This document shows, in pieces, positions 2,489-18,325 of a stretch of 64,000 bases of DNA. The DNA is taken from the UHGV virus genome UHGV-1366640, one strand, 5' to 3'. The notes under the pieces are model-generated. The model was not told where the DNA came from. It made no database searches and worked only from the letters and a program-made list of their open reading frames with translations. Origin of the DNA: a virus. The translations under genes were made by a program, and so were the position numbers. Positions within the stretch are counted from its first letter, which is position 1. Each line of letters begins with the position of its first letter.

Positions 2489-2545
2489 ATTTCTTTGTCT
2501 TTTGAAAGATCTTAAATATTTGTATGAAGGGAGAGAAGGATCAAT

Positions 2546-4489
2546 ATGAATTTTCATAATAGAATTCCAAGTCCGGGAAATACAGTTTCTGTCGATTTTG
2601 AATATGAGAAACCTGTAAGTTCAAGTGATCTTAATGAGATTCAGTCGATTCAGTCTTCTGAAGATAAGATAGATATTCGTGGTAAATATACAATGAGATC
2701 TGATAATGGTTTTATTATGCATGCTGAGATCACTGATATTGTCATCCCATCATACAATGGTGTGAGATATAATATCAATATACATCTCACAACTCCATGG
2801 ATTGTGGAATCTGTAGCAGACGATTCAGACACTGCTTTTCATAAATATTTGTATTGCTATGTAAGAACTCGTCAAGTAGACTCTAATTCTACTTTGTATA
2901 AGAATGGACTTCGTAGTCCTGTACTAATTAATGGCTCTTCCGTAGAAGAGACACTTCCAAATATTATTATGGATCCTCTTCTTGCAGAGGAGATCAGCGC
3001 TCGTACAATTTCAGAGATCGCATTTACTCTTGGAGAACAGCCAAATTTTCCATGGACAGATGCTGTCAAGATTGATGTTTCTCGGTATTATATGAAGTTG
3101 GGTTATGGTCTTATGAATGATACAACAACTCCATATCTTTCAACAGATAGTGCGTTTCTCCCATCTCAGACAGAGTTCAATCAGATGGCTTTTCGTTTAG
3201 GAGAACCAGTCCTCCTGCATAGAGATCCATTGATTGAGATGGATATAGTGACAGGAGCAAATGGAACTTCTGGGTCTTATGTGACAGCTCGCCGACTTTC
3301 AAAAATGAAATTTGTTGCATTCAATCGTTGTATTGAATTAGATGATATCTACCTTTCAAAGAATCTTGATATCTCAAATAACACAAGAGCTGTAATTGTA
3401 TATGCTTATCTTTCTCCAGATAGATCATCAGGACTTCAAATAATGGTGAGTGGTTCATTAATTAAGACTCTTGAGTATGATCTTCCGTTAACAATCATGA
3501 TTGAGACTATCAAGACTCCTGGAGATGTAAATGCGAATCTTCGTATGGGTTATGAAGTTTTGTATGCAGGAGTTGAAGCAACACCATTGGGTTCTGAAAA
3601 TACTACAAATTATGGATCTTCTTGCTTGATTGTAGTAGATCCGTCACTTTCTGCGTCAGAATCAGACTTCACAGATCATTCAGGTATTTCAGCATCTTAT
3701 CTTTGGTCCTCTGAAGGCTTGAATCTTCTTGTTAATTCTGATATTGCAATGATCAATAATGATATGTCACTTTTTGTTGGAAGAGAACAGACAGCTGTTG
3801 GTGGTTTGAATTCAATTTCTTGTAAGAAGATCTATACTGAGCCATTGTTGCTTCTTATGAGTGCAATGAATATGATTTTTTCATCAACCTCCACTATTTC
3901 CTGTGATATCTATAATTCATTCTCTTGTGATTATGGATTCAATTATTGGGGATCATCTTCTGTGATTTTCGATTTTCATGGAAATACAGTTGATTGTAAT
4001 TATCTCTTTTCAAGTCTTGCTCTTAATAGATCTCCTGTTATAAAGAATTTGAATCTTACAGGATATCTCCTTCAAAAAGCTGCTTCATCTACTGCTATTT
4101 ATACAGCTATTCAAGTAGATGATTCTTCTTTCAAGTTTGGTTGTAGCAATACAACTAATCCTTGGAAGATAAGAATGAAATGCAAGAACTGTAAGATAAC
4201 AGTTGATTCAATCAGTAATCATGTTGGTACAGCAAGTACTGATCATGGTATCTGGTTTATCAATAACATATTCTATCTTCCAGATGGGACAAATGACTGT
4301 ATAGTACCATATGGAGTTGCAAGTGATAATATTCGTAATTGGATGGGAAATATAGCAGTGAAAATTGGTGGTAGTGCAGCAGCTAATAAGCTGTATATTT
4401 ATAATGCAGATTTTAGTGCTACGATTGACATTTCTGTAGATGATTATGGTAACAGAATTGTTGATAATAAGATTTATTCTACTGTATAG
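2546..4489 (+). CDS. large structural-like protein of unknown function
   Basis: 647 aa, Ser/Thr/Asn-rich, no nucleotide-binding motifs; SD GGAGAGAAGGA upstream. Confidence 0.45.
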   Translation: MNFHNRIPSPGNTVSVDFEYEKPVSSSDLNEIQSIQSSEDKIDIRGKYTMRSDNGFIMHAEITDIVIPSYNGVRYNINIHLTTPWIVESVADDSDTAFHKYLYCYVRTRQVDSNSTLYKNGLRSPVLINGSSVEETLPNIIMDPLLAEEISARTISEIAFTLGEQPNFPWTDAVKIDVSRYYMKLGYGLMNDTTTPYLSTDSAFLPSQTEFNQMAFRLGEPVLLHRDPLIEMDIVTGANGTSGSYVTARRLSKMKFVAFNRCIELDDIYLSKNLDISNNTRAVIVYAYLSPDRSSGLQIMVSGSLIKTLEYDLPLTIMIETIKTPGDVNANLRMGYEVLYAGVEATPLGSENTTNYGSSCLIVVDPSLSASESDFTDHSGISASYLWSSEGLNLLVNSDIAMINNDMSLFVGREQTAVGGLNSISCKKIYTEPLLLLMSAMNMIFSSTSTISCDIYNSFSCDYGFNYWGSSSVIFDFHGNTVDCNYLFSSLALNRSPVIKNLNLTGYLLQKAASSTAIYTAIQVDDSSFKFGCSNTTNPWKIRMKCKNCKITVDSISNHVGTASTDHGIWFINNIFYLPDGTNDCIVPYGVASDNIRNWMGNIAVKIGGSAAANKLYIYNADFSATIDISVDDYGNRIVDNKIYSTV

Positions 4490-4502
4490 GAGTGATGTAT
4501 AG

Positions 4503-4919
4503 ATGAAAAATATCGTTAAGATGATTTTTGTTAAGTCTGACGAAGATCAATCATTTGGAATCTATACAAGTTCAGTAGATTTGGGGAGAGTGGGAGATTC
4601 AAATGCATCTCAACTCTCTTTTCCAAATGTTGTTTCTGAGATCTATGAAAATGGATATAATCTTACATTAACATTTCTTCCTGTTGGTGTTGTCAATGCT
4701 AATCCTCTCACATATACATTCCTCAATGCAGATAATAAGACAGTATTTGATATTCCTTCTGAATTGACAAAATACCAATCTTATGATTGTCAGGCAAGAA
4801 TTTCAGATTCATCTGGTCAGGTTTGTCTTTCAAATAAGATCAGGTTCTATCTCACGCAATCTCTCATAACAAAATCTATCACAGATACTCCAGGATCTCC
4901 TGGAGATCTTCTTATATAA
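4503..4919 (+). CDS. hypothetical protein
   Basis: 138-aa ORF. Confidence 0.4.
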   Translation: MKNIVKMIFVKSDEDQSFGIYTSSVDLGRVGDSNASQLSFPNVVSEIYENGYNLTLTFLPVGVVNANPLTYTFLNADNKTVFDIPSELTKYQSYDCQARISDSSGQVCLSNKIRFYLTQSLITKSITDTPGSPGDLLI

Positions 4920-4933
4920 GGAGTTGGTATAAT

Positions 4934-7279
4934 TTGGAGATATTGAGTCTCACTGTTATTAAGGATCAAATACGATTGAATAGATCTCTCGTTGGTACAA
5001 CTCCAGAATTGTATACAGGAAATACATCGTATACATTGAGTGTTTCTTTTTCTGAGGATTGGGTATCAAGGACAGTCCTTGCTGTTTTCATAAAAGGGTC
5101 AACTGCATATCAAGTTGATGTTGGTACTGTGGCTGATGCTGGAGAAGTCATTAGAAATGTTCTTATACCGTCAGAAGTTCTTACAGATGCTGATAACACG
5201 ATCTCTTTCGGATTCTATTCAGTCATGGAGGGGACTTCTCGATTAAGTACAGAACTTGGAACATTCTCTGTAGTTGATGGTGCATACCGAGATGGAACAA
5301 CACCGACTCCTCCTGCTCCTGACATCTGGGAGCAACTTGTTCAGAAAGCAGTTCCAATGATTGATCCAACAACCACAAATTGGATGATCTGGGACATGAA
5401 TCTTGGAAAGTATGTTGATACTGGATTTCCTTCAAGAAGTGAGAAGGGAGATAGTGGTGTTGGTTTTACAAATCTCATAGAGCAGGGGACAAATTATAAG
5501 ATTTGTGATCCATCAAGCACAGTTCTTCAATCTGCAGAATATTCAGTCACATTGGGGCATAATTGTACTGTTCTTACATTCTCTTGTTTTGCTTCTGGTG
5601 ATGGATGTGTTGCAGGTAAGAGAGCTTTTAAGATTACAGCGATGCCTTCTACTACATCTTTTACGCTTGATTCAGTTGATGGATTAGCTGTTGGGGATGT
5701 TGTTTCATATTCTAATATTTTCTCAGGTTCAGGTACAGCTTCTGCTGTTTGGAGAGAGAGCCAAGATCTTTCAAAGATTACCGCAATCTCTAATACAACA
5801 ATAACATTGGATTCTGATATTTATTCACTTACTCCTACAGATGTTAATAATTTTCAATCAAGTACAGATCGTATTGCTTGCCGACTTTGGGTAAATGCAA
5901 AACCTGAAATTGGTACATATGATTTATCTACTAAAGCAAATGCAAGAGGTAGAGGGTGTAAAGCTCTTGGAGATGGGTCTGATGTTGGTGGAAAAGATAA
6001 TGTTGTAACTTCTCCATATGGTGCTGCTGTTAATTCAAGTAATAGAGTTGATGCAGAGAGTGGTTTTGGTTTTGGTTCAGGTAATACTCTTGGTTGGAAA
6101 GCTGCAAGATCTGCTGTTGGTGGAAATAAATGTGTGAATAATTCGTATGCTTCTCTTATTGGTGGTAATGGTTCAGAGTCTCCAGCAGGAATTCGTCAGG
6201 TTTTTGGTTGGGGAGAGCATCTTGAATTTTCAAACGATAGTGAAGCTGCTGTGGGAGCATATAATAAGACAAAATCTAACCTTAGATTTTCTGTTGGTAA
6301 TGGTTCAGATGAATCTCATCGTTCAAATGCCCTTGAAGTCTATAAAGACGGTACAGTCATTATTCCAAAGAGTTTCCAGCAGGTCGCATATGTCAATTCT
6401 CCTCAGAATACAAGTGGCTGGTATAAATTTGCTCATTATAATTTTTCAACTTATAAATCTGGATCTCTTCTCCTCGATGTTTGTCAGGGATATGCTGGTG
6501 ATAAATTCAACTCATTATTTGAGTTGGAAATAACAACAGATGATACGGGATTTCATCCACAGGATGGTTTCGTTTTTAGACAGATTGCTGGTCAAGACAT
6601 TACAGATCGAATTTGTTATTATATAGATACAGCAACTCATGATGTAGATTTCTATATAAGGAAAACTCGGTATGATTATATCTTCTTTACAAAACTTGCA
6701 GATACTTTTGGAGATCTTATAACCTATTTTACAAATGTTGGTCCTGAGACTCTTGATAGTAGCATTACAAGTGTTAATCCAGGAAATGATTTTCTTGTAA
6801 CGAAGAGTTTTGTAAATTCTTCATTGAATAATTATTATAACAAGACTGCTGTCGATTCCTTATTGTCTTCAAAATCTGATAAAACTGCTATTGTTTTCAT
6901 ACAGAATGCTTCTTCTATTTCATTTGAATTAGGAAGTAACAGTGACAATAAGGAATTCAGAATTGTTGATAATGTGTCATCTCCAACTGTTCTTTCACAG
7001 ATTGGAACTGCTACGATCAATGTTTCTATTATGAATGGAAGTTTCAATAATGATTATATCACAGGATTGACATTCAGAACAGCTGCTACTGGAACGATTA
7101 CGATGTCTTATACTGGTACAGGAATTCTCCAATGGGTTGGAACTGATTGTGATGTACAAGATGGTTACAGTGTTTTCACTCCACAGAATAGCATGACTTA
7201 TGATATTGTGTTCTATTTCAATGGTGCAAGATTTGTTGGACTTGTTAATGGTTATGAAGAACTGAATGTTGAAAAATAA
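4934..7279 (+). CDS. tail fibre-like or host-specificity-like protein
   Basis: 781 aa; Gly/Ser/Asn-rich segments (GSGNTLGWKAARSAVGGNKC...), typical of phage fibre or adhesin proteins. Confidence 0.4.
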   Translation: MEILSLTVIKDQIRLNRSLVGTTPELYTGNTSYTLSVSFSEDWVSRTVLAVFIKGSTAYQVDVGTVADAGEVIRNVLIPSEVLTDADNTISFGFYSVMEGTSRLSTELGTFSVVDGAYRDGTTPTPPAPDIWEQLVQKAVPMIDPTTTNWMIWDMNLGKYVDTGFPSRSEKGDSGVGFTNLIEQGTNYKICDPSSTVLQSAEYSVTLGHNCTVLTFSCFASGDGCVAGKRAFKITAMPSTTSFTLDSVDGLAVGDVVSYSNIFSGSGTASAVWRESQDLSKITAISNTTITLDSDIYSLTPTDVNNFQSSTDRIACRLWVNAKPEIGTYDLSTKANARGRGCKALGDGSDVGGKDNVVTSPYGAAVNSSNRVDAESGFGFGSGNTLGWKAARSAVGGNKCVNNSYASLIGGNGSESPAGIRQVFGWGEHLEFSNDSEAAVGAYNKTKSNLRFSVGNGSDESHRSNALEVYKDGTVIIPKSFQQVAYVNSPQNTSGWYKFAHYNFSTYKSGSLLLDVCQGYAGDKFNSLFELEITTDDTGFHPQDGFVFRQIAGQDITDRICYYIDTATHDVDFYIRKTRYDYIFFTKLADTFGDLITYFTNVGPETLDSSITSVNPGNDFLVTKSFVNSSLNNYYNKTAVDSLLSSKSDKTAIVFIQNASSISFELGSNSDNKEFRIVDNVSSPTVLSQIGTATINVSIMNGSFNNDYITGLTFRTAATGTITMSYTGTGILQWVGTDCDVQDGYSVFTPQNSMTYDIVFYFNGARFVGLVNGYEELNVEK

Positions 7280-14588: not shown

Positions 14589-14782
14589 AATGAAATTATG
14601 AAGATTTCTTTTGTATGTTGATGAGAACTCCCTTTTCAAGGATTTTGTTCAAATTGAATCAATTTATCAAGTTGAATGAATTTTATGAATATTTTGGGTA
14701 GATAATCATAGCATGCAATCTTTGATCAGGGTGTTCTTTATTCATTCATTCAAAAGGATAAATAAAGAAAGGATTGATAATT

Positions 14783-16089
14783 ATGGCAAGAACTCTTGCT
14801 GAATCTTATAATGGTGCTTCTGCTAAATTTGGTATAGGCACTTCTGCAAATGCACTTCTTAACAAATGGAACAAGGAAGTTTCGATCATCAATGAAGCTT
14901 TTAATGGAAAAGCAAATCCGGATAAAGTTCTTGGTACTGCTATTCTTCTTGAAAATACTGAAAGACACATTAGAAACTGTGCTACAAGAAATGCAATGTT
15001 CAGTGGTGTCCTCAATGAAGGTACGACTACAGCTGATGTTTCTTACTTCAAACAGTTTGCGTTCAACAACTTGATTGCAGTATATCCGAACCTGATTGCC
15101 CCTGAACTTGTTTCTTCTCAGCCGATGCTGTCAAGAGCTGGTTCTATCAGATACATTCGTGCTATCTATGGTAGCAATAAGGGTGGTATCAAGAAGGGTG
15201 ATACAATGTTTGGTCAGTATTCGCTTGGTGATCATCCTGCAGATGCTACATATTCCAGTGGCAGTGTTGAGGGTGAACTTCTTGGTACTGATGCTGCGAC
15301 TACGAATTTCAATCTCTCCTGGACTCCTGTAATTCCTGGAACTGTTGAAATCTTGTCGGGTGATGGTACTCTCACATATCGTGATGATTCCATTGGTGGT
15401 ATCGTATCTACAGCAGGTGCTGCTTCTGGTAGTATTGATTATGCAACTGGTAAGATCACATTCACTGCTGCTCCTGCTGCTGGATTCACTGCAAACTATG
15501 AATATGACAATGTTGATACTCTCCCGATTCAGGCTCCTGAGATTCAGGTTAAGATAGTTGAGACTCCTGTCTATGCAAAATCCAGAAAACTCAAAACTCT
15601 CTTCAGCTTTGATAGTGATGCTGACCTCTCGAATGATTTTGGTATTTCTCTTTCTGCAGAAATCCTTTCGATGAGTTCTGCACAGCTTAAGAGAGAAATC
15701 GATGATGAGATAATTATAGATCTTAGCACCAAGGGCACAGCTCCCGGGACTTCGTTTGATGCTACAGTTCCTGATGGTGTATCACTTGTTGATCACTATG
15801 CTGGTTTCCCAGCAGCTGTTGCAGTTGCATCGAATAACATCTGGAATGCTACTCAGGTTGGTAATGCATCGTGGATCATCGTTGGTCAGGATGCTGCTAA
15901 CATTGTTGAAGCTATTCCGAGATTCAAATCTTTGGGTGTAGTGAATCCGAAGGGATCTCATCTTGCTGGTTATCTTGGTAATCTTCCTGTGTATAAGTCT
16001 ACTGCTGTTGCAGCTGATGCATGGGTAGTTGGTTATAAAGGTGACAGTTTGTTTGAAGCTGGCTATATTTGGGCTCCCTATCTTCCTAT
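14783..16089 (+). CDS. major capsid protein, exon 1 (as read, the ORF continues to a TAA at 16106-16108 inside the intron)
   Basis: ATG 14783 after SD AAAGAAAGGA. 444-aa track ORF, hydrophilic and Gly/Ala/Thr-rich, follows the scaffold gene. Proposed 5' splice site after U16089. Confidence 0.55.
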
Positions 16090-17414
16090 TGAAAAACAAG
16101 TAGCTTAATTCACAATGAATTAAGAATCCCTCAGTGAACTCAGGGAAACTCCTAAAGCTCAATCTACCAAAGTCATACAGTGATGTGTGACTGGATGATC
16201 TAATCAATCATGTATGGTAACAAGGGTTGAGATGTTACAATGGACAATCCTGATCCAAGTCACTCTTTTGTCAGAGTGAAAGGAGCAACGACTATTAAGT
16301 AGAGCCAAATGGTACGGCAGTCTTGGAGAGCGTAAGTCCGTTTAATTCGAAGTGCTGATAATCATATGATATAGTCTGGTCTATCCAATACTTAATTGGT
16401 ACTGTTAGAGTTGTCAGTAGTCGAAAGACATAGATTGAATTAGTGAATTCTTATTTCCCAACATCCTCACATTGAAGGAGGTGAATGTAGTGTTAAAATA
16501 TCAGTGTCAACTGTGTGACAGATCTACTTTTAAGAACTGGAGAGATTTTGTTACACATTTACGACGACACAAGATCCGTAAGAAAGAGTATTTTGAGAGA
16601 TTTCCGTATATCTATCCAGAACCAGTTGGTGTTTATGGAGTTGACTATGTGACTTGTCCGATTTGTAATGATAATCGTGAATTTCAAAGTTTGACTCAAC
16701 ATTTGATAAATAAACATAAGATCTTAACTGAAGAGTTCTTAGTCAAGTTTCCAGGAAAGAAACTTTTCACAGAAAAGTATTCTAAGATGCGAGCTGATTT
16801 TTGTAGAAAAGGCTTGACAAAGAATTGGGCGGATCCTGAATATCGTAAAAAGAGATCAGAATACTGTTCAGAATTTTTCAGTAAAATTAATTCTGGCAGT
16901 AAGAGACCTGTTCAATCTGAAACAATGAAGAAGACTTTGAAACGATTGTGGAAAGATGAAGAATATTGTAAGAAGCAATCTGAACGAATGAAAGAAAGAC
17001 ACAAATCTGGGGAGCTTGAAAGACAAGTTCTTAATGGTTTCGGGAAGAAATGGATCAAGCATGAAACTTGGTATGGAAAGATAGCAACTCTTAAAAGTTC
17101 TTACGAAGTCTATGTTGCTAAATTTCTTGATGAAAATAAGATCATGTATGAATACGAAAAGATGTATGAGTATCATGACTCTTATTCAGACAGGGATAGA
17201 AAATATTATGCAGATTTCTATCTTCCAGATTATAATATTGTATTAGAAGTCAAAGCTTCTTGGGCAATAGATCGTTATCAAGTTCTAAGAGATAAGATGC
17301 TTGCAGTTTTAGAAACTGGTACACGATATAAATATGTCACTGAACGAGATTTGGGAAAACTCGTCAGCTTGAAAGAATTCGAAATGCTAATTCAGAGTAA
17401 CAATAACGAATGAG
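16090..17414 (+). mobile_element. group I self-splicing intron with embedded homing endonuclease ORF
   Basis: Core elements visible: P2 hairpin CUUAAUUCA-CAA-UGAAUUAAG (16104-16124); P4 CUCAGGGAAACUCC; GUAUGGUAACAAGG; GGACAAUCCUGAUCC; R-like AACGACUAUUAAGUAGAGCC; S-like GAUAUAGUCUGG. Proposed P1 pairs exon CUAU(16086-16089) with IGS AGUAG(16099-16103), including a U16089-G16100 wobble. G17414 would be the omega G. The splice is in-frame. Confidence 0.7.
16472..17413 (+). CDS. intron-encoded homing endonuclease: 2x C2H2 zinc finger + NUMOD-like repeats + PD-(D/E)XK nuclease
   Basis: Two C2H2 fingers (CQLCDRSTFKNWRDFVTHLRRH; CPICNDNREFQSLTQHLINKH). Lys/Arg-rich NUMOD3-like repeats (SETMKKTLKRLWKDEEYCKK...). 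C-terminal ADFYLPDYNIVLEVK is a PD-x6-E-V-K nuclease motif. The true start may be GTG 16490 after SD AAGGAGG. Confidence 0.55.
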   Translation: MKEVNVVLKYQCQLCDRSTFKNWRDFVTHLRRHKIRKKEYFERFPYIYPEPVGVYGVDYVTCPICNDNREFQSLTQHLINKHKILTEEFLVKFPGKKLFTEKYSKMRADFCRKGLTKNWADPEYRKKRSEYCSEFFSKINSGSKRPVQSETMKKTLKRLWKDEEYCKKQSERMKERHKSGELERQVLNGFGKKWIKHETWYGKIATLKSSYEVYVAKFLDENKIMYEYEKMYEYHDSYSDRDRKYYADFYLPDYNIVLEVKASWAIDRYQVLRDKMLAVLETGTRYKYVTERDLGKLVSLKEFEMLIQSNNNE

Positions 17415-17529
17415 TACACAACTTCTTATGGACGAAACCTTCACAGGTCGTCAAGGTTATTCGACCAGCTATGCAAAGAAGATGACAGCGTCAGACTTCT
17501 ATGCAACCAATACTATTACACATTCCTAA
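17415..17529 (+). CDS. major capsid protein, exon 2 (37 codons, unannotated)
   Basis: After the proposed splice, codon AT|T is restored (Ile) and the reading continues TQLLMDETFTGRQGYSTSYAKKMTASDFYATNTITHS to TAA 17527-17529. Too short to appear in the ORF track. Confidence 0.5.
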
Positions 17530-17740
17530 TTTTTGATTAGAGATTCTTTGAGATTCATGGAAGAGAGTTCTTATGTGTGATCATTTACCTCTCCGAAAAA
17601 GGTTTTGCTTTGTTTTCATGTGTAATTCTCTCCTTTGAATATATTTGTTAATACATTGTTTGCTACCTCCAAAATATAATATTACATTCACACAAGAAGC
17701 TTTCCATGGATCTCTTAGTGATCTCTCTGAAAGGATTGAT

Positions 17741-18325
17741 ATGATTTTGTTTAGATTAAGATATCTTGGTAATTCGCATATTTCTACGAAGATTCTTAGA
17801 AAGAATCCTAAAAGATGGTCAGAAGTCAAACTTACAGCTGATCATGATTATATATTTGATCCAGATACTGATGTTTTGTCAGAAGCAACTCTTGCATATT
17901 ATAGATCGTTAAAAAGACTGAGAATTCTTCTTGTAGATGATTCCTGTGCGGATGTCGAAGAGATGACGATCTCTCAGATTCAGGAACCAATCAATGAAGA
18001 AATTCCTGCTCAATCAGTAGATATTAACGAAGAAGAAGCTCCCCTTTATGAGGAAGACACAATTAATGATTTTGTAGAAGAAACTCCTGTAGCTGATGAA
18101 GAATCTGTTAGTGAAGAAATTCCTGAAGAGACTGCTCAAGCCAATGAGATCAGCGATGAAGAACTCTCTGAATTCATTGATGCTTCCTGTGAGGATATCA
18201 ATGCTCTTAAGAAGTTTGCGGAAGATCTCAATGTTGAAATTTCTCCAAGAGTTAAATCTGCAGAAAAGATTATTGCTAAGATCATCTCAGAAAAGAGAGA
18301 TGAAGTTGTTAGTATGATGAAATGA
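17741..18325 (+). CDS. highly acidic protein (internal head protein candidate)
   Basis: ATG 17741 after SD GAAAGGA; C-terminal half extremely Glu/Asp-rich. Confidence 0.4.
   Translation: MILFRLRYLGNSHISTKILRKNPKRWSEVKLTADHDYIFDPDTDVLSEATLAYYRSLKRLRILLVDDSCADVEEMTISQIQEPINEEIPAQSVDINEEEAPLYEEDTINDFVEETPVADEESVSEEIPEETAQANEISDEELSEFIDASCEDINALKKFAEDLNVEISPRVKSAEKIIAKIISEKRDEVVSMMK

Follow-up and report, generated by a model that had tools for sequence, protein, structure and literature searches.

The capsid gene in the 64,000-nucleotide stretch of virus genome UHGV-1366640 analysed here (the window) raises the question of where its protein ends. The ORF at 14783-16108 (441 codons) covers only positions 14-327 of the 376 in the Pfam Gp23 profile and, as the match stops at 327, the C-terminus is missing from it. 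It is identical to a public 441-aa call (P0001), named 'hypothetical protein' by JGI, and finishes with five spurious intron-encoded residues, EKQVA; the unspliced gene would end C-terminally in ...GYIWAPYLPIEK. A first-pass annotation had proposed that a short, unannotated second capsid exon of 37 codons lies downstream of a group I intron, directly after G17414 and in frame with exon 1. A 37-codon open frame (TQLLMDETFTGRQGYSTSYAKKMTASDFYATNTITHS) does occupy 17416-17526 downstream of G17414, followed by a TAA stop at 17527-17529, and joining 16089 to 17415 keeps it in frame. The frame can be extended upstream by two codons (ATG AGT, 17410-17415), giving a 39-aa ORF at 17410-17529. We assign two coding segments to the capsid gene:

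14783-16089, + strand: major capsid protein exon 1, gp23-type (Pfam PF07068 Gp23, E = 7.6e-44)
17409-17529, + strand: major capsid protein exon 2 (homologue alignments, Pfam extension, T4 gp23 alignment, dN/dS)

Exon 1 ends CCU AU, with U16089 as its last nucleotide. The Ile codon split by the intron (AU|A) would be completed by A17409, after which come 39 codons (MSTQLLMDETFTGRQGYSTSYAKKMTASDFYATNTITHS) and the TAA stop.

The downstream frame and the capsid C-terminus

Comparison of the 39-aa tail with capsid C-termini gave 32 identical residues out of 38 (84%; E = 7e-21 for this single comparison) with P0004, an uninterrupted homologue. The tail also aligned with the C-termini of the capsid proteins of Bacillus phage HSE3, Listeria phage LIS04 and SP-15. 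When phage genomes were searched with tblastn, uninterrupted homologues of the spliced protein, matching to its last residues, were found in Bacillus phage vB_BceM-HSE3, Listeria phage LIS04 and Streptococcus phage GXN1. P0002-P0008, homologues from metagenomes that are 65-71% identical, ended C-terminally in ...APYLPIMSTQLLMDETFTGRQGFSTSYGKKMTNSDFYGKSTITHD, and the conserved C-terminal motif of the capsid family is GRQG(F/Y)xTSYxKKM. With the tail joined to exon 1, the Pfam Gp23 match reached profile position 356 of 376 instead of 327 (+29 positions), and its score rose from 151 to 161 bits. The spliced protein matched PF07068 at 161.3 bits (cut-off 24.4) over profile positions 14-356, a full-length gp23-type match that includes the C-terminal part. 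Its alignment to the T4 gp23 structures (PDB 5vf3) was continuous across the junction (E = 8.5e-11). Searched alone, the 37- or 39-aa tail gave no match in Pfam or PHROG; it is too short for a profile match, so the homology is shown in the context of the full protein. Against four relatives, the exon 2 frame showed saturated pS (0.5-1.0) and low pN (0.19-0.28), indicating that it has been under purifying selection. As judged by these sequence comparisons, the flagged frame is the capsid C-terminus, far beyond chance. No second capsid gene was found in the window.

In the public record, an identical ENA contig, k119_285387 (98,224 bp), carries the 441-aa fragment and the 39-aa tail as separate, unjoined gene calls, and the exon-1 protein is present on three contigs. 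The description of exon 2 as unannotated is thus correct in that the 39-aa ORF carries no annotation, but the ORF was already called as a gene of its own. The predicted spliced product is most likely a capsid protein of 475 aa with the junction ...APYLPIMSTQLLMDETFTGR. The practical value of this assignment lies in the corrected annotation, a 475-aa capsid instead of a 441-aa 'hypothetical protein' and an orphan 39-aa ORF; if the truncated sequence is used in modelling, classification or proteome searches, the GRQG(F/Y)xTSYxKKM motif is missed.

Megablast of 14700-17700 against 50,697 phage records gave no match, indicating that this collection holds no annotated near-identical genome. A terminator scan 3′ of exon 2 found none. 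After the capsid gene, an ORF at 17645-18325 encodes 226 aa with a very acidic C-terminal half and no PHROG match; in SP-15, HSE3 and LIS04, the corresponding place between the capsid and gp13 neck genes is taken by an unnamed 'hypothetical protein'.

The intervening group I intron and its predicted endonuclease

The only Rfam match in the whole window was to RF00028, full-length at 16078-16398 (35.6 bits; E = 6.4e-7 for a 2-kb region and 2e-5 for the whole window). This score lies below the Rfam gathering score of 50 bits; same-site relatives of the intron scored 45.6 and 27.4 bits. The elements of the intron, all on the + strand, are:

16090-17408, + strand: group I intron of 1319 nt, IA2-like (T4 td-like core motifs), with terminal G17408 (Rfam RF00028)
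16086-16445, + strand: ribozyme core (RNAalifold, per-helix table, pair counts)
16086-16090 with 16099-16103: P1
16104-16111 with 16117-16124: P2, assigned by eye from the sequences
16131-16136 with 16353-16358: P3
16140-16145 with 16248-16253: P4
16150-16152 with 16242-16244: P5, with the P5 extension at 16158-16240
16254-16256 with 16282-16284: P6
16260-16265 with 16274-16279: P6a
16290-16295 with 16371-16376: P7
16296-16345: P7.1/7.2 region
16381-16384 with 16430-16433: P9, enclosing a GAAA-capped hairpin at 16420-16429
16490-17413, + strand: intron-encoded homing-endonuclease ORF of 307 aa (GTG start, AGGAGG 7 nt upstream; identical to public protein P0121)
17385-17395, + strand: 3′ strand of a long-range helix, pairing with 16435-16445 (11 bp in the window)
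17406-17408, + strand: 3′ strand of P9.0 and terminal G; A17406 and C17407 pair with U16380 and G16379

Introns at the same capsid site were found through homologues of the intron ORF (L007-L010) and through a ribozyme-core scan (L011). An exact-pattern scan for the intron core gave 0 matches in viral_contigs and five loci in metagenomes. RNAalifold on five introns recovered P1, P3, P4, P5 with its extension, P6 and P6a, with compensatory changes in 33 of the 82 predicted pairs. In a manual structure of six introns, which includes the P3/P7 pseudoknot, P9, the GAAA-capped hairpin and P9.0, 98.5% of cells were paired, compared with 31-42% in controls slid by 1-3 columns, and 18 of 44 pairs showed compensatory changes. 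Such changes occurred in P3, P5, P6 and P6a; P4 and P7 were invariant. The fold contains a P4-P6 domain and a P3/P7 pseudoknot with J8/7, and the terminal U of exon 1 faces the guide sequence in P1, where U16089·G16100 is the invariant U·G pair in 6/6 introns and the neighbouring pairs covary. The long-range helix (16435-16445 with 17385-17395) was paired in 87.9% of cells across six introns, compared with 27-47% in slid controls, with compensatory changes in 5 of its 11 pairs. The last codons of the endonuclease ORF double as ribozyme structure in this closing helix. A local hairpin, GAAUU-AGUG-AAUUC (16437-16450), was considered as P9.1 and rejected, as only the long-range helix is kept in L009-L011. 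Together, the homology of the tail, a ribozyme supported by covariation and five same-site introns bear out the proposal of a short capsid exon downstream of a group I intron, and on this comparative evidence the intron in the capsid gene is real.

The intron ORF spans 16472/16490-17413 and encodes 307-313 aa, depending on the start. Its N-terminal part resembles Ros/C2H2-type zinc fingers and its C-terminal part a T7 endonuclease I-like PD-(D/E)XK nuclease. A profile of 15 homologues matched T7-type endonuclease I in the PDB (3cae, E = 2e-4; 1m0d, E = 3.9e-4), and the same profile matched the Ros zinc-finger domain 2jsp (E = 6e-3). The endonuclease I match covers the catalytic E...D...ExK motif, which is present in the ORF alongside this similarity, and E206, D242, E253 and K255 are invariant in the homologue alignment (A3). 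PHROG matches were to 'endonuclease' and 'Holliday junction resolvase'; in Pfam, family members match DUF7487, ROS_MUCR and Phage_endo_I, the last in three homologues. To our knowledge, zinc fingers of the Ros/MucR-like and C2H2-like kinds are not known together with a T7 endonuclease I-like PD-(D/E)XK domain in any characterised homing endonuclease. In five other phage contigs, introns at this capsid site also carry homologues of the ORF, and the putative function of the protein is most likely homing into intron-less capsid alleles. The last sense codon of the ORF, GAA, spans the 3′ splice junction, and its TGA stop (17411-17413) falls within exon 2, 5 nt in, where it shares the sequence ATGA with the capsid Met codon. 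Read-through of the 3′ splice site by the ORF was also seen in L007 and, with a TAA stop, in L011.

The whole is best explained, with high probability, by a single gp23-type capsid gene that is split by a mobile group I intron and spliced at G17408. In this model, a late transcript would span exon 1, intron and exon 2, and the 5′ 360 nt of the intron would fold into the ribozyme core, with P1 presenting U16089 in a U·G wobble with G16100. The long-range helix would loop out the endonuclease ORF of about 940 nt and return the 3′ splice site to the core, where a 2-bp P9.0 (16379-16380 with 17406-17407) would set G17408 in the guanosine-binding site of P7. Two transesterifications would join ...CCU AU to A AUG AGU..., and the spliced mRNA would be translated into the 475-aa capsid protein. 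In co-infecting relatives whose capsid allele lacks the intron, the homing endonuclease would cut near the conserved APY(L/M)P(I/V) codons, and repair would copy the intron in; the intron-less allele in L005 reads ...CCTTATTTGCCGATTATGTCAACTCAG... The sequence analysis shows the homology of exon 2, a ribozyme structure supported by covariation, the conservation of the nucleotides at both splice sites and the fold of the nuclease. We infer splicing in vivo, the activity and target site of the endonuclease, and the catalytic competence of a copy that, as described below, lacks P8.

Position of the 3′ splice site and competence of the intron

[quoted passage not shown] The first-pass annotation had placed the splice at G17414, with 37 codons and the junction APYLPI-TQLLMDETFTGR. 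This is probably 6 nt off, as exon 2 very probably starts at 17409 with G17408 as the terminal intron nucleotide. Close intact homologues (P0002-P0015) all read PIMSTQLL or PVMSTQLL (full motif ...APYLPI-MS-TQLLMD...), and the window encodes their M-S at 17410-17415 (ATG AGT). With G17408 as terminal G, the join CCU AU|A AUG AGU ACA gives ...APYLPIMSTQLL..., gapless against the closest homologues; ...CUUCCUAU would be joined to AAUGAGUACA..., the junction would read APYLPI|MSTQLLMDETFTGR..., and the predicted tryptic junction peptide is GDSLFEAGYIWAPYLPIMSTQLLMDETFTGR. Splicing at G17414 would join exon 1 to UACACAAC... and give the junction peptide ...APYLPITQLLMDETFTGR and the tryptic peptide GDSLFEAGYIWAPYLPITQLLMDETFTGR; it would delete the M-S found in all close homologues, leaving a 2-residue gap relative to T4 gp23, HSE3 and LIS04.

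The same-site introns point to the same boundary. Exon 1 ends CCN (A/G)U in each of the six, and in 6/6 a G sits 1 nt ahead of the first full codon after the split Ile/Val codon. The equivalent of G17408 is kept in 6/6 (the window and L007-L011), whereas the equivalent of G17414 is a G in 2/6, the window and L007, where Ser is AGU, and a C in L008, L009, L010 and L011; in L008 the G nearest to this position would break the reading frame. The P9.0 pair beside G17408, formed with the third nucleotide of J7/9, covaries, being C-G in four introns and U-A in two, as expected for P9.0 next to the terminal G. A17413, which precedes G17414, is unable to form the covarying pair with G16379. The terminal G follows the ORF-closing helix by 13-16 nt in all six introns, whereas G17414 lies 19 nt after it. 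L010 and L011 have a P10 of 8 and 7 bp, respectively, in register with the 17408 junction. For the window, neither candidate 3′ site gave a convincing P10 pairing; P10 is therefore unusable for the choice in this copy and, with further G residues close by, this limits confidence in the boundary. A 3′ splice site at G17414, with exon 2 at 17415-17529 (37 codons) and a product reading ...APYLPI-TQLL..., is unlikely on these grounds, even though the nucleotide is a G, the join is in frame, U17415 could pair with A16099 and no P10 in the window separates neighbouring Gs. Given the missing P10, some use of G17414, yielding an in-frame 2-aa deletion, is possible. With the boundary shifted by 6 nt to G17408, the junction peptide first proposed is most likely not to be found, and ...APYLPIMSTQLLMDETFTGR is expected.

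A second reading accepts the intron and doubts that this copy splices. P8 is normally counted in the conserved P3-P8 domain of group I introns. In the window, only 7 nt (UAAUCAU, 16359-16365) lie between P3′ (16353-16358) and J8/7-P7′ (16366-16376), and the P8 positions of the Rfam model appear as a deletion, whereas six relatives (L007-L011 and L013) have a P8 hairpin of 5-12 bp. The P1 loop is ∼20 nt shorter than in most relatives. As L004, the only further contig compared, shows 100% identity across the region covered, the P8 deletion has no independent confirmation, and no independent assembly refutes it. With neither P8 nor P10 and a score below Rfam gathering, the competence of this copy is not assured. 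A crippled intron in a defective genome, with exon 2 intact only because the damage is recent and with no full-length capsid made, would account for a P8 absent only in the window, a shortened P1 loop and an absent P10. We nevertheless consider it very unlikely: the contig assembled to 98 kb, the exon-1 protein occurs on three contigs, and all other helices as well as the J8/7, P7 and P9.0 nucleotides are intact. In addition, no element varies more between the relatives in length and sequence than P8, and this suggests that P8 is peripheral in this intron family. The intron copy in the window is most likely functional, given that it interrupts the phage's only capsid gene and that every other core element is intact.

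A functional copy would be a natural group I ribozyme without P8 and P10 that still splices enough for the most abundant virion protein, with an endonuclease ORF that doubles as ribozyme structure (closing helix, P9.0) and reads through the 3′ splice site. We put this combined reading forward tentatively, as a serious possibility that stops short of being probable. If it is true, P8 would be dispensable in vivo in this IA2-like family, and the P8-less copy would constitute a natural experiment on ribozyme core requirements. A literature search on P8-less group I introns returned nothing relevant.

Finally, the gene could be expressed in pieces without splicing, as a 441-aa fragment and a separately translated 39-aa peptide (ATG 17410) that assemble non-covalently. 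The peptide would arise by reinitiation after termination at the endonuclease stop codon, which its start codon overlaps as AUGA. The ATG of the 39-aa ORF lies exactly where homology resumes, it forms the ATGA overlap (17410-17413), and gene callers treat the ORF as its own gene. However, the Met is a native residue of the PIMSTQLL motif, no Shine-Dalgarno sequence lies upstream of ATG 17410, and the start codon of exon 2 is missing in L009 (GUC) and L011 (AUA), where separate translation is thus impossible. This reading would also leave a complete ribozyme with conserved splice-site nucleotides in between and append the foreign EKQVA to exon 1, and we regard it as extremely unlikely. An intein was rejected because a stop closes the exon-1 frame five codons after the insertion point and the ORF in the insert uses a different frame; translational bypass over 1.3 kb was also rejected, being implausible given the complete ribozyme.

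Related introns and crowding in the capsid gene

The core motifs AACGACUAU... and GAUAUAGUCU of the window intron are ones that we take to be shared with the IA2 introns of T4 td and nrdD (sunY). As in the window, the td and sunY introns contain P7.1/P7.2 as additional helices between P7 and P3′, and their ORFs are looped out from a peripheral helix; the sunY ORF lies 3′ of the core. The td and nrdD introns differ in that they interrupt nucleotide-metabolism genes, encode GIY-YIG or HNH endonucleases and have P8; moreover, unlike that of the window, their ORFs stop short of running through the 3′ splice site. Use of the PD-(D/E)XK fold for intron homing is known from I-Ssp6803I-type homing endonucleases, which the window ORF resembles in its E...D...ExK signature. 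It differs in having no detectable sequence relationship to them and in its additional Ros/C2H2-type zinc fingers; its nearest counterparts are T7 endonuclease I and DUF7487 proteins.

Group I introns in capsid genes are already documented in phages, and the window is a further case at another site. In the nearest cultured relative, Bacillus phage SP-15 (GenBank KT624200; capsid 41% identity), a group I intron (Rfam 38 bits) with a Phage_endo_I-type ORF likewise interrupts the gp23-type capsid gene, SP15_032, whose CDS is annotated as a join. In contrast to the window, the SP-15 insertion is mid-gene, leaving an exon 2 of about 197 aa, and the gene is uninterrupted at the site used in the window (PVMTTSL). 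For the capsid intron of mycobacteriophage LittleE, splicing has been proven by RT-PCR and protein sequencing across the junction (PMC3706429), and the same paper cites a capsid-gene intron in lactococcal phage Tuc2009. The LittleE intron shares with that of the window a homing endonuclease inside a capsid intron, an exon 1 ending in U and an intron ending in G, but it lies in an HK97-type siphovirus capsid gene, is 819 bp long and located near the N-terminal processing site, and has only a tentative class (PMC3706429); it is unrelated in sequence to the window intron.

In several related contigs, a single capsid gene is interrupted by as many as two or three introns, and all introns examined carry ORFs of the endonuclease-I-like or Ros/MucR zinc-finger type. 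The SP-15-related clade seems to have a hotspot of mobile introns in its capsid genes, and this crowding deserves attention alongside the P8-less ribozyme. Intron endonucleases can serve as weapons between co-infecting phages (PMC11620839), and a family that targets capsid genes would be a good system for testing this idea.

Individual contigs gave further observations. The capsid gene of L007 has three Rfam group I matches (64.6, 45.6 and 37.9 bits; regions 1055-1616 and 2529-3878), and that of L010 has two intron-plus-ORF insertions (1390-2607 and 3054-4411). In L009, an endonuclease-I-like ORF (129-962) lies upstream of a capsid fragment, and P0080 is truncated at yet another capsid site (…SFDAA|LTSMSSAA). 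A related intron 10 nt upstream of the window's site is present in L013 (reverse complement, 7453|...|8616) and also in L012 and P0062. In L013, it follows the first nucleotide of the APY Tyr codon (GCU CCG U | ... G | AU AUG CCC GUU), indicating two insertion sites within one conserved motif, 10 nt apart. Directly after the intron-less capsid gene of L005 (P0004), at 3105-5372, lie two large free-standing ORFs of DUF7487, the family matched by many homologues of the intron ORF; these possibly encode homing endonucleases located beside their target.
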